Shown here: in pieces, positions 7,445-34,809 of the stretch
Numbering within the stretch: position 1 is the first letter of the stretch
Layout of the letters: each line of letters begins with the position of its first letter
Virus record (IMG/VR): IMGVR_UViG_2563366858_000008
From: a virus
Taxonomy: Duplodnaviria; Heunggongvirae; Uroviricota; Caudoviricetes
Direction: 5' to 3' (one strand)
Length of the DNA: 39,834 nucleotides
The notes under the pieces: generated by a model
What the model was told of the DNA's origin: nothing
The model's input: only the letters and a program-made list of their open reading frames with translations
The model's database searches: none
Position numbers and translations under genes: made by a program

Positions 7445-7600
7445 GTTAAATCTCCAGATAGTCGCAGCACCCGTTGCGCCGCATATCTGGTTATTCTATT
7501 ACCTGAAAAACCATATATGGATGGAAAGAGTGTTAATGTGAGCAGATATTACCTTTCAGGTGATTCGCAAAACGTGCTGGATAGCAAACAAATTATCTGC

Positions 7601-7620
7601 TACTGTATAAATATACAGTT
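7601..7620 (+). promoter_or_regulatory. LexA (SOS) box
   Basis: TACTGTATAAATATACAGTT matches CTGT-(A/T)8-ACAG; lies 20 bp upstream of the moron start codon. Confidence 0.75.
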
Positions 7621-7639
7621 ATTGCATGGAGAAGATAAG

Positions 7640-7897
7640 ATGCAGCAGTATCACTATCCACTGAAAGAGGGATTTACCGAAAGGATTCACACGCCGGGAG
7701 GCGTCAGGTCACTGGTGGAAGGATCGCACTTGATGAAATTACTCCGGGATCTCGATAAGGATGGATTTAATGTCGATGGCCCACTTGCCGAACTGACTGC
7801 ACTGATTAACTACGTCACCAGCTCACAGATGTCTATGCAGGATCTGCAAACACATCTCGACTATTGTGCCGAACAATTACGAAAACAAACCCGGTAA
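7640..7897 (+). CDS. Small SOS-regulated moron protein, unknown function (candidate antirepressor)
   Basis: GGAGAAG RBS 5 nt before ATG 7640; 85 aa; the track's longer ORF from 7517 would contain the LexA box. Confidence 0.6.
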   Translation: MQQYHYPLKEGFTERIHTPGGVRSLVEGSHLMKLLRDLDKDGFNVDGPLAELTALINYVTSSQMSMQDLQTHLDYCAEQLRKQTR

Positions 7898-7904
7898 ATT
7901 TAAA

Positions 7905-7920
7905 GGCCGCGAAAGCGGCC
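7905..7920 (-). terminator. Intrinsic terminator after the lipoprotein gene
   Basis: GGCCGC-gaaa-GCGGCC hairpin; on the minus strand followed by TTTAAATTT. Confidence 0.6.
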
Positions 7921-7921
7921 T

Positions 7922-20416: not shown

Positions 20417-20436
20417 GTGGGTCTGTTACGACCCAC
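20417..20436 (-). other. Stem-loop after the major capsid gene
   Basis: GTGGGTC-tgttac-GACCCAC, no U-tract; between capsid stop and next RBS. Confidence 0.35.
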
Positions 20437-24435: not shown

Positions 24436-24450
24436 TTACCTTTAAGGTAA
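24436..24450. promoter_or_regulatory. Operator-like inverted repeat TTACCTTTAAGGTAA (perfect)
   Basis: Perfect TTACC-N5-GGTAA in the noncoding region upstream of the tRNA. Confidence 0.6.
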
Positions 24451-24934: not shown

Positions 24935-25012
24935 ACAGCAGGACGCCATTGCGATGACTTCATGCTGTAAACCAGTACAGCCACGGAAGGCATAACTCAT
25001 TGCTTCCAGTTC

Positions 25013-25052: not shown

Positions 25053-25424
25053 ATGAGTGACAAAGACATTGAATCTGAAATTCAGGCTAAAGGTTTAGCC
25101 GCGCCGCGCGTTACGCCAGACCATATCGAGAGCATTATTGCTCAGGAGGCATATTTCACAGCAGAAGATGGTGTCTTTGGCGTAGCCATAAAAGCGAAAC
25201 ATACTGGCGGAGAGGTAAACTACCAGCCGCACGAATCACTTTCTCTGCTGACGTTCTGCGTTCTGGTGCTGCGCAACGGCTTCACCGTCACCGGAGAGAG
25301 CGCCTGTGCAAGCCCGGAAAACTTTGATGCGGAAATTGGTCGGAAGATTGCCCGGCAGAATGCTGTAAACAAAATCTGGATGCTTGAAGGTTACTTGCTG
25401 AAGCAGAAGTTAAGCGAGCAATAA
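25053..25424 (+). CDS. Moron protein of unknown function, co-located with the tRNA
   Basis: AAGGTGAG RBS; 123 aa; opposite strand to flanking terminase and portal genes. Confidence 0.65.
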   Translation: MSDKDIESEIQAKGLAAPRVTPDHIESIIAQEAYFTAEDGVFGVAIKAKHTGGEVNYQPHESLSLLTFCVLVLRNGFTVTGESACASPENFDAEIGRKIARQNAVNKIWMLEGYLLKQKLSEQ

Positions 25425-26990: not shown

Positions 26991-27583
26991 TGATTGCCAT
27001 CCTGACGTTCTTTCAGTCTCTTCCTGGCTGCCGCTATGCGATCAGCAATTGTCACATTCACATTAACATCCAGGCGTTCTTTGAACGCGTTGACATCAAC
27101 ATGCTTACCAATCAGCTCAAGGTTCTTCACCTTGTCAGGCCATTTAATTTTTTTGAGGATTGTCTCTATCGAATCCTCGTTCATGTTCATGATGGTCGAT
27201 GACAGATCAAAGCCACTAAGCGTAGTGCGCCAGATTTTCGGCCACTCACGGATTGGTTTAAGGCTCCCATCGTCGTTGAGGATATCGATCACGTCCATCT
27301 GGTCGATCTCCACCAGGCGCATGAGAACGTAATCAGCACTGACGCGCATTCGTTTGTTGCGCTCCTCCATCAACTCGGCAATCCGTTTTTGAATGCGTAC
27401 ATCGCGCATCATGACACTGGCTTTAACTGCCGCTGTATTTGGGGAGAACCCTGCGTTAATCGCTGCCTGAGTCTGGTTTTCAGGCGTTTTGATGTATGAC
27501 TGGCAATAAGCCTCCTGCATTGCTGTGAGCGGCTTAAATTGCGTTGATTTGCGTTTATAGGTTTTAGGTTCAGCAGGCATCAT
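26987..27583 (-). CDS. Terminase small subunit
   Basis: Start MMPAEPK at ATG 27583 (the track's N-terminal extension to 27661 crosses a terminator and operator repeats); motif QEAYCQSYIKT...AAINAGFS typical of small subunits. Confidence 0.75.
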   Translation of the reverse strand: MMPAEPKTYKRKSTQFKPLTAMQEAYCQSYIKTPENQTQAAINAGFSPNTAAVKASVMMRDVRIQKRIAELMEERNKRMRVSADYVLMRLVEIDQMDVIDILNDDGSLKPIREWPKIWRTTLSGFDLSSTIMNMNEDSIETILKKIKWPDKVKNLELIGKHVDVNAFKERLDVNVNVTIADRIAAARKRLKERQDGNQ

Positions 27584-27597
27584 AACCACCGTGGTAA
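27583..27597. promoter_or_regulatory. Operator-like repeat TAACCACCGTGGTAA (1 mismatch), overlapping terS start
   Basis: Adjacent to the perfect copy at 27601; 18 bp centre-to-centre. Confidence 0.45.
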
Positions 27598-27600
27598 TAG

Positions 27601-27615
27601 TTACCGTTGTGGTAA
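27601..27615. promoter_or_regulatory. Operator-like inverted repeat TTACCGTTGTGGTAA (perfect)
   Basis: Between the late-leader terminator and the terS start codon. Confidence 0.6.
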
Positions 27616-31431: not shown

Positions 31432-31446
31432 TTACCTCTAAGGTAA
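31432..31446. promoter_or_regulatory. Operator-like inverted repeat TTACCTCTAAGGTAA (perfect)
   Basis: Overlaps RBS/leader of the 31084..31428 gene. Confidence 0.6.
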
Positions 31447-31493: not shown

Positions 31494-31508
31494 TTACCCG
31501 ACAGGTAA
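31494..31508. promoter_or_regulatory. Operator-like inverted repeat TTACCCGACAGGTAA (perfect)
   Basis: Just downstream (minus strand) of the terminator-like hairpin after the P-like gene. Confidence 0.6.
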
Positions 31509-33463: not shown

Positions 33464-33478
33464 TTACCTTTTAGGTAC
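33464..33478. promoter_or_regulatory. Operator-like repeat TTACCTTTTAGGTAC (1 mismatch)
   Basis: Between the terminator after the cro-like gene and the next gene. Confidence 0.45.
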
Positions 33479-33533: not shown

Positions 33534-33764
33534 TCATGAGTAGAAGAAGTACGCCAGTTCTGCTTTTGAGCGCAGCCATCGTCTTGTTTTACAGGCTTTA
33601 AAAAGCCCATTCATCAATACCTTACCTGGCATTTTGCGCTTACCTGTTAAGTGAGTCTGGATATAGTGACTCGTCGTTCCGGCTTCCTGTGCGAAGGCTT
33701 CACGCTCATCCGGAGTAAGTGCAAGCCAGTGTTTTTTGAAATCGAAATGTCCGTTATCGCTCAT
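33534..33764 (-). CDS. Cro-like small regulator
   Basis: 76 aa; divergent from the repressor gene across the three-site operator region. Confidence 0.5.
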   Translation of the reverse strand: MSDNGHFDFKKHWLALTPDEREAFAQEAGTTSHYIQTHLTGKRKMPGKVLMNGLFKACKTRRWLRSKAELAYFFYS

Positions 33765-33800
33765 AGCTATTGCCTGATATTTATTTCAGATAATAAATAT

Positions 33801-33815
33801 TCACCCATAAGGTAA
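33801..33815. promoter_or_regulatory. Operator site TCACCCATAAGGTAA (1 mismatch)
   Basis: First of three sites in the cro/cI intergenic region. Confidence 0.55.
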
Positions 33816-33831
33816 CAAAAATCAAGGATAG

Positions 33832-33846
33832 TTACCCATGGGGTGC
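33832..33846. promoter_or_regulatory. Operator site TTACCCATGGGGTGC (2 mismatches)
   Basis: Middle site; 17 bp centre-to-centre from the next. Confidence 0.45.
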
Positions 33847-33848
33847 AT

Positions 33849-33863
33849 TTACCTGTTGGGTAA
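33849..33863. promoter_or_regulatory. Operator site TTACCTGTTGGGTAA (perfect)
   Basis: Third site of the tripartite operator. Confidence 0.65.
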
Positions 33864-33918
33864 TATTGCTTTAAATTGAATCATCTACTGATTCATATAT
33901 GAGGCGATTTTCCAGAAA

Positions 33919-34503
33919 ATGAAAAGTATCCAGGACGTCCGCAGGCAAAATCTCAACGACTTGATCGACCGTGAATTCAATGGTGTTCAGACGCGGATGG
34001 CAGAAAAACTTGGAACTCAGGCAAATCTGGTAAACCGCTGGGCTCTTGGCAAGAAGGTTATCGGCGACCAGGTTGCGCGAAAAATTGAAGCTGCCGCCAA
34101 TAAACCCCGTAACTGGCTTGATATCGATCGCTCGCTTTCTCAGGAAGGTTTTCAGCCTGTCGGCCCAAGCGACATTGGTCAGCTGGCGGCTCACAACCTG
34201 GAACGCTGGATGAGCGAAAGCCGCGACCTTTCAACACAGGGAAAACTTCACCGCGCATCCGGCGTCGCCCAGGTGACAATCAGCCGCCTGTTAAACAATG
34301 AGGTCAGCGTTTCCATTTCCACCCTGGAGAATGTTGCATCCGCATTCGGGCGTCACGGCTATGAATTACTGATTCACCCGCACGACCCTGCGACTATCAA
34401 CTATGACCGCTCGCGCTACGCATTGTTACCCGAAACAGAGAAGGCAAAGATCGAAAGTTACATTGAATTTGTCATCAGCCAGAACGAAAAAAACAAACAA
34501 TAA
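33919..34503 (+). CDS. Prophage repressor, tandem HTH (XRE-type), no autocleavage domain (cI-like)
   Basis: Two HTH-like segments (QTRMAEKLGTQANLVNRW and ASGVAQVTISRLL); 194 aa, no room for an S24 peptidase domain; divergent from cro-like gene. Confidence 0.7.
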   Translation: MKSIQDVRRQNLNDLIDREFNGVQTRMAEKLGTQANLVNRWALGKKVIGDQVARKIEAAANKPRNWLDIDRSLSQEGFQPVGPSDIGQLAAHNLERWMSESRDLSTQGKLHRASGVAQVTISRLLNNEVSVSISTLENVASAFGRHGYELLIHPHDPATINYDRSRYALLPETEKAKIESYIEFVISQNEKNKQ

Positions 34504-34523
34504 AATCATATTTTTCAGTAAGT

Positions 34524-34550
34524 AAGCCGCCTCATGGCGGCTTTTTTATT
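34524..34550 (+). terminator. Intrinsic terminator after the repressor gene
   Basis: AAGCCGCC-tcat-GGCGGCTT followed by TTTTTATT. Confidence 0.75.
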
Positions 34551-34560
34551 GCCAGCAAGA

Positions 34561-34575
34561 TTACCTTATGGGTAA
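34561..34575. promoter_or_regulatory. Operator site TTACCTTATGGGTAA (perfect)
   Basis: Upstream flank of the early-left promoter. Confidence 0.65.
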
Positions 34576-34594
34576 TTTTTTTAACTCATATCTA

Positions 34595-34622
34595 TTGACA
34601 TCAAACCAGATACGCATAATCA
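34595..34622 (+). promoter_or_regulatory. Early-left promoter (PL-like)
   Basis: TTGACA, 16-bp spacer, TAATCA; bracketed by operator sites at 34561 and 34623. Confidence 0.55.
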
Positions 34623-34637
34623 TTACCTCAACGGTAA
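34623..34637. promoter_or_regulatory. Operator site TTACCTCAACGGTAA (perfect)
   Basis: Immediately after the -10; would cover the transcription start. Confidence 0.65.
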
Positions 34638-34656
34638 CAGACCGAGGTAACAAATT

Positions 34657-34809
34657 ATGCAGTGGAAAATCATCAACGGTTGGTACTGCGTTACTGCATG
34701 CGGATTCATGAGCTGGAAGTTCCGCACCTTACAGGAAGGCATTAAGTGGGCTTTCGTCAGCAAAGAAGCTCGCGATGTGGCCAACGATAACGAGATATGG
34801 GAGGGCTGA
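34657..34809 (+). CDS. Small first gene of the early-left operon (50 aa)
   Basis: GAGGTAA RBS 6 nt before ATG; Trp-rich peptide; below the ORF-track length cut-off. Confidence 0.4.
   Translation: MQWKIINGWYCVTACGFMSWKFRTLQEGIKWAFVSKEARDVANDNEIWEG

Follow-up and report, generated by a model that had tools for sequence, protein, structure and literature searches.

The 194-aa protein specified by positions 33919..34503 of the window (the whole stretch of 39,834 nucleotides analysed here) is very probably the immunity repressor, Rep, of a phiV10-like Uetakevirus, which would work as does Rep of Salmonella phage SPC32H and be switched off by way of an SOS-controlled antirepressor, Ant. The gene for the latter (ant, 7640..7897) is almost certainly that through which phiV10-like prophages are induced under SOS control. 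Judged by sequence, the pair belongs with the SPC32H-type Rep/Ant switch, all of the defining features that can be tested in this manner having been found.

The window can be assigned to a phiV10-like temperate podophage of the genus Uetakevirus. Its structural region is 96–98% identical to those of phiV10 and phiv142-3, and its immunity region 98% identical to that of phiV10 and of many other E. coli phages. The immunity region (33765–34660) is found at an identity of at least 95% in 539 of 5426 complete E. coli genomes (~10%), and nearly all of these matches are single-copy and chromosomal. At one end of the genome there are two genes which phiV10 does not possess: one for a glycine-zipper/TraT-like lipoprotein candidate (1–516; Rick_17kDa_Anti [5e-8], and TraT [2e-6], the latter below the cutoff) and one for a DUF5384 protein (532–1071) [4e-62]. 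These are probably lysogenic-conversion cargo located beside the integrase end.

The repressor gene, rep, is an ATG-start ORF on the plus strand (33919..34503). The N-terminal residues MKSI are unchanged across 33 homologs, and the start codon is therefore taken to be correct. In a large protein search the homologs of Rep formed 86 clusters, nearly all with proteins of about 194 aa; among their sources are Escherichia, Citrobacter, Lelliottia, Raoultella and Serratia. PhiV10p40 and the repressor of phage vB_EcoP_ZX5 (ORF21) both share 99.5% identity with Rep, and the locus is 98% identical; between these repressors and that of the window there is essentially no difference. The gene is followed by a predicted intrinsic terminator (34524..34543, plus strand) which is annotated in phiV10 too. 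Divergent from rep is a cro-like gene (33534..33764, minus strand) the 76-aa product of which is a homolog of phiV10p41 and epsilon15 gp39, and matches phrog_35 'transcriptional repressor' [1e-12]. When ORF21 of ZX5 was overexpressed free phage was abolished, and the transcripts for endolysin and holin fell by more than 99.9% (PMC9782041).

The homolog of known structure is Rep of SPC32H, with which window Rep shares 42% identity over 98% of its length [BLASTP, 2e-53]. Taken by domain the identity is 54% for the N-terminal part, 33% for the middle part and 43% for the C-terminal tail; by these alignments the homology is a full-length one involving all three parts. Chain A of PDB 5D50 ('Repressor', from the Rep-Ant complex) matches window Rep over residues 1–190 [4e-42], and PDB 5D4Z, which comprises residues 92–198 of SPC32H Rep, also matches it [4e-20]. 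The same two structures were the best Foldseek matches of an AlphaFold2 model of Rep; SinR was also retrieved, and HigA antitoxins appeared as weak matches. The two Rep proteins thus have a three-part architecture in common and the two phages a common gene order, while the window phage has E. coli as its host and SPC32H has Salmonella.

The weak HigA matches, and the label 'plasmid maintenance system antidote protein VapI' in the record of phage BP9, would suit another reading, namely that the ORF at 33919..34503 specifies some other XRE-type protein such as an antitoxin of the HigA/VapI kind. We regard this as a vanishingly small chance, because no toxin gene is adjacent, because rep and a cro-like gene diverge and operator clusters over early promoters flank rep, because the phenotype of ZX5 overexpression is that of a repressor, and because the homology to the characterized Rep of SPC32H extends over the full length of the protein.

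The presence of two HTH-like domains in this 194-aa polypeptide, as the preliminary description had proposed, was confirmed both by domain searches and by structure prediction. Full-length Rep scores 38.5 bits against Pfam HTH_3 (PF01381), in two matched stretches; with a gathering cutoff of 23 bits this makes it, by score, a member of the XRE/Cro-C1 HTH family. Residues 1–75 alone resemble the YdaS_toxin/Cro-like HTH [4e-4] and HTH_3 [0.012; 16.1 bits, below the cutoff], and residues 84–154 alone match HTH_3 [4e-6, 27.1 bits], the LacI HTH [5e-6] and HTH_26 [1e-5]. The matches of the middle domain (aa 86–152, window 34174–34374) to HTH and LacI-type families are, therefore, stronger than those of the DNA-binding domain. 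The last 45 residues, scanned separately against Pfam, gave no match. The AlphaFold2 model (mean pLDDT 77), built on an alignment of 33 homologs, is helical throughout, with two HTH-type domains and no beta-rich domain. In this model the N-terminal domain consists of four helices (residues 4–19, 24–31, 35–43 and 50–59), the linker (about residues 60–85) is of low confidence, the second domain is made up of five helices (residues 86–151), and the C-terminus consists of an extended segment followed by a long helix (172–192). The C-terminal ~40 residues are a third element of Rep, which the preliminary description overlooked.

We accordingly divide Rep into an N-terminal HTH domain (aa 1–70) for DNA binding, a flexible linker (aa 71–85), a middle domain of XRE/LacI-like HTH fold (aa 86–152) for dimerization, and a C-terminal tail (aa 153–194) for tetramerization and Ant binding, the three roles being assigned from what PMC9986798 and PMC9638917 say of the SPC32H protein. 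According to the first of these, SPC32H Rep binds DNA with its N-terminal domain and dimerizes through a middle one (MDD), and its C-terminal CAD or 'TetDloop' forms tetramers and binds the antirepressor. The second has Rep on DNA as a tetramer in which the pair of heads reading a palindrome comes from different dimers. It also describes how Ant, itself a tetramer, attaches to two Rep dimers and breaks up the tetramer of Rep. The two HTH halves of window Rep gave no alignment when compared with one another by BLASTP, and they are therefore presumably two different HTH-type folds; a recent duplication of a single HTH was rejected for this reason. Their recognition helices also differ, being ANLVNRW in the first domain and AQVTISRLL in the second. 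The net charge is +4 in the N-terminal domain and about 0 in the middle domain, the corresponding ranges across the Rep family being +3 to +6 and about 0 to +3.

Rep was also said to be devoid of a LexA-like cleavage domain and of an Ala-Gly site, and on both points the description stood. Peptidase_S24 was sought at E≤10 in the whole protein and in three segments of it and no match was obtained, for which reason a cryptic S24 domain or cleavage site was rejected; nor does the S24 Pfam domain occur in any of the 86 homolog clusters. The 194 residues of Rep contain not one Ala-Gly or Cys-Gly dipeptide, and not one cysteine. Having neither the S24 domain nor an Ala-Gly or Cys-Gly site, Rep stands outside the LexA/lambda CI-type autocleaving repressors. 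One could still suppose that a cryptic self-cleavage, RecA-dependent or of another kind, inactivates Rep and that Ant is an accessory, and the SOS-inducibility of close relatives could be cited in favour of this, but that property alone fits either route. Besides the lack of an S24 match and of the dipeptides, the model and the solved homolog consist of helices save for short C-terminal strands, leaving no room for an S24 fold, and an Ant homolog preceded by a LexA box is present and conserved. Kim & Ryu, in 2013 (J Virol 87:11775), reportedly found SPC32H Rep not to be cleaved. Self-cleavage as the means of inactivation is thus highly unlikely. Rep would instead be incapable of cleaving itself, and induction would proceed via the LexA protein of the host.

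The sites at which Rep presumably acts are distributed across the genome. The 15-bp dyad operators to which the preliminary description referred are real: TTACC-N5-GGTAA occurs in seven exact copies in the window, as against 0.00 expected from shuffles, and the Rep-type dyads, counted from exact copies to those with two mismatches, are symmetric and mostly paired. Between rep and the cro-like gene is a cluster of three (33801..33863), comprising a dyad with one mismatch (33801–33815) which overlaps a predicted leftward promoter (33818..33790), one with two mismatches (33832–33846) and an exact one (33849–33863); all three are kept in position in six phages. Downstream of rep there are two exact dyads 62 bp apart (34561–34575 and 34623–34637), which bracket a predicted early promoter, TTGACA-17-AATCAT (34595–34623). 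These dyads, the TTGACA element and the spacing are conserved in six phages, and the equivalent sites are annotated in the epsilon15 RefSeq record as repressor binding sites.

Further dyads are found at a distance from rep. A second pair of exact copies, again 62 bp apart, is located downstream of the replication gene (31432–31446 and 31494–31508), and recurs with this spacing in SPC32H (L003 35972 and 36034) and in phiV10 (L001 3959 and 4021). Two adjacent dyads, the first with one mismatch (27583–27597) and the second exact (27601–27615), occur where the small-terminase ORF, and with it the late operon, begins; in SPC32H an exact dyad (L003 12–26) comes just before the small terminase gene. 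A single exact dyad (24436..24450) is intergenic near a tRNA-Arg, with an SPC32H counterpart at L003 3175, and another single dyad of the Rep type (33464–33478) follows the cro terminator. With the exception of that at 33464, every dyad outside the immunity region has an SPC32H counterpart at a syntenic position; in both phages one finds the same dyad, in the same syntenic places, at spacings of 17, 30–31 and 62 bp. The two differ in that the middle rep-cro operator is degenerate (two mismatches) in the window, unlike in SPC32H, and in that downstream of rep there are three dyads in SPC32H and two in the window. Since dyads occur far outside the immunity region and are nearly all syntenic in SPC32H, their distribution suggests a repressor at work on many promoters throughout the genome. 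That most dyads come in pairs would suit a tetramer whose four N-terminal heads are identical.

It had also been proposed that a single polypeptide might read the dyads with both of its DNA-binding domains. Under such a model the two domains would between them read the two halves of a dyad, or the dyad and a flanking element. Both Rep domains do match HTH DNA-binding families, the second with the stronger Pfam scores, and in the second Q107, Q118 and R123, which are invariant in the 33 homologs of the E. coli-type clade, occupy positions typical of XRE/LacI DNA contacts. The evidence nevertheless speaks against this proposal. TTACC and GGTAA are one and the same half-site in inverted orientation, a symmetry that calls for two heads of the same kind, while the two domains are without detectable sequence similarity and possess different recognition helices. 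SPC32H shares both the half-site and the N-terminal helix NLVNRW, even though its Rep is only 42% identical and has E and P at the positions equivalent to Q107 and Q118, the canonical Gln residues thus being kept in window Rep and absent from that of SPC32H. The middle domain has a net charge of about 0, compared with +4 for the N-terminal domain, and PMC9986798 gives DNA binding to the N-terminal domain and dimerization to the second. Finally, a second conserved DNA motif which the middle domain might read was sought by aligning both main operator regions from six phages, and only the dyads and promoter-like blocks proved to be conserved; a separate motif of this kind was therefore rejected. 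Given the symmetric half-sites, the dissimilar domains, the charge and the published domain assignment, we consider reading of the dyads by both domains of one chain to be improbable, and take the N-terminal domain as the reading head and the middle domain as the dimerizing one.

A lesser role for the middle domain is a little easier to entertain, though still doubtful. Because this domain keeps in the E. coli-type clade a LacI/XRE HTH signature that is partly lost in SPC32H, it might conceivably make an auxiliary contact with DNA, which would amount to a hybrid mode of binding unlike that in the SPC32H structures.

The inference that induction occurs by antirepression proved to be right in so far as the window encodes an Ant homolog behind a conserved LexA box, and the component likely to be responsible can now be named as ant. 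This gene (7640..7897, plus strand), which is preceded by the ribosome-binding sequence GGAGAAG, specifies an 85-aa protein that is 88% identical to Ant of SPC32H and matches chain E of PDB 5D50 ('Anti-repressor protein') [6e-47]. It is placed as ant is in SPC32H, with the tailspike gene, from which it is divergent, on one side and a large virion gene on the other; the SPC32H-type arrangement, a small (~86 aa) Ant homolog between tailspike and virion structural gene, is by sequence found here. Related phages have also kept ant. After the gene comes a hairpin terminator (7904..7921), the equivalent stem-loop being annotated in epsilon15. Between the window phage and SPC32H Ant (88%) is far more conserved than Rep (42%).

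The start codon of ant is preceded, at a distance of about 20 bp, by a predicted LexA box, TACTGTATAAATATACAGTT (7601..7620), as revealed by a scan for CTGT-N8-ACAG; by its sequence the box provides the LexA site expected at ant. Across seven phages, from E. coli, Salmonella, Enterobacter and Klebsiella, the arms of this box (TAC-TGT...ATACAGT) do not change and its central bases vary. Upstream of the LexA box is a dyad resembling the Rep operator, TTACCTTTCAGGTGA, with one mismatch (7549..7563), which is likewise conserved in seven phages and is exact in its SPC32H counterpart (L003 20013). A dyad upstream of the epsilon15 ant homolog, gp19, is annotated as a 'repressor' protein_bind feature in the RefSeq record of that phage. 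A simple scan for the sigma-70 consensus upstream of ant found no promoter, and we infer the position of the ant promoter only from SPC32H and the conserved blocks. Just upstream of the tailspike start (~7499–7520) there is a block, TATTACC...AACC.TATATG, which is invariant in seven phages and includes one Rep half-site. The epsilon15 annotation has an IHF site in the matching intergenic region, directly next to the Rep dyad on its upstream side.

CTGT-N8-ACAG is matched three times in the window, compared with 0.64 expected. A further match, CTGTAAACCAGTACAG (24965–24980), is situated about 75 bp upstream of an ORF with the Pfam domain Phage_gp49_66 (25053..25424). Its centre is GC-rich and a CTGT-N8-ACAG counterpart, when sought in SPC32H, was not found; it is possibly, or probably, a chance occurrence. 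Two other LexA-like sites are probably due to chance also, that at 20423, which is inside a structural gene, and that at 33774, the sequence of which is CTGA...TCAG.

Other genes bearing the name of antirepressor should not be confused with ant. The 'putative anti-repressor' of phiv142-3 (L002 5424–6080), compared with the window by tblastn, matches by its C-terminal domain alone, at 7631–7876. In phiv142-3 and ZX5 this 'anti-repressor' joins a Bro-N domain to a C-terminal domain which resembles Ant (39–43% identical to it), and both phages carry it besides the small ant gene. A tblastn search of the window showed the Bro-N gene to be absent, and it was rejected as the antirepressor of this phage, the C-terminal match having led to the small ant. 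The antirepressor named and tested in the ZX5 study was the Bro-N-type gene and not the small ant (PMC9782041). The small ant is labelled 'hypothetical protein' in most records of phiV10-like phages, that of ZX5 included. For these records the gene at 7640..7897 can now be assigned with near certainty, and herein lies the value of the present analysis for annotation.

The manner in which the switch might operate can be pieced together as follows, the oligomeric state of Rep, the roles of its domains, its non-cleavage and its binding by Ant being points which we infer from the SPC32H literature. The N-terminal Cro/YdaS-like HTH would read the TTACC half-sites of the 15-bp dyads, the second domain, of XRE/LacI-like HTH fold, having been recruited for dimerization, and the C-terminal tail of strand plus helix would build Rep tetramers. 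A dimerizing middle domain together with a tetramerizing tail would give a Rep tetramer with four identical reading heads, able to occupy two dyads at once. Candidate targets for such double occupancy are the adjacent rep-cro dyads and the dyads spaced at 62 bp which bracket the early promoter. Bound to its operators Rep would shut the divergent early promoters and probably that of ant and other promoters as well. Upon DNA damage LexA would be cleaved and the LexA box before ant freed, allowing ant to be transcribed; Ant would then bind the C-terminal domains of Rep, break the tetramer and so take Rep off the DNA. For SPC32H a review gives the same order of events, with self-cleavage of LexA followed by synthesis of the antirepressor and inhibition of the repressor by protein-protein interaction (PMC7380047). 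Treatment of ZX5 lysogens with mitomycin C raised the titre from 1e7 to 1e9 PFU/mL, and for prophages of the phiV10 species a microcin that damages DNA gave 21- to 47-fold induction (bioRxiv 10.64898/2026.05.26.727859). Both sets of data agree with antirepression.

Much of this was already known. The Rep family, its two HTH motifs, the lack of a cleavage domain, the antirepressor, its control by LexA and the structures of the complexes were published or annotated between 2005 and 2016. The Rep/Ant lytic switch of SPC32H is said to have been worked out by Kim & Ryu (2013) and Kim et al. (2016, PNAS 113:E2480). The GenBank/RefSeq note to phiV10p40 already mentions two helix-turn-helix motifs and similarity to the putative repressor epsilon15p38, and the corresponding note to epsilon15 gp38 states the relationship to 5D50 (citing HHpred 5D50_A). 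Because Ant is 88% identical and the operator half-site is shared, cross-induction between the Uetakeviruses of E. coli and Salmonella is possible, and there may perhaps be partial cross-immunity; as a separate conjecture we would give this about the same low likelihood as the auxiliary contact considered above.

Among other repressors, those of lambda (CI) and P22 (C2) as well as LexA resemble window Rep in having an N-terminal XRE-type HTH and dyad operators, and with lambda CI and P22 C2 there is the further likeness of a repressor gene divergent from cro and flanked on either side by operator clusters. Unlike these three proteins Rep possesses no S24 domain, no cleavage site and no Ser/Lys dyad, and it would oligomerize, again unlike them, through an HTH-fold domain and a short tetramerization tail. 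In SinR/SinI of Bacillus and Rco/Rap of pLS20, as with Rep, a protein antagonist acts on an XRE HTH repressor whose tetramerization element is C-terminal, and the Rep tail is placed in a single 'TetDloop' fold class with Rco and p53 in PMC9986798. Both of these systems lack the middle HTH-fold dimerization domain and LexA control, and the resemblance is one of analogy or distant fold similarity only. A like logic is found with the repressors of Gifsy-1 and Gifsy-3 and the LexA-controlled GfoA and GfhA (Lemire et al. 2011, PMC3121763), and with CI and Tum of coliphage 186. The proteins of Gifsy and 186 are unrelated to Rep and Ant, no sequence relationship having appeared in any search made, and what all these phages have in common is a non-cleavable repressor inactivated by a small, LexA-repressed antirepressor (review PMC7380047).
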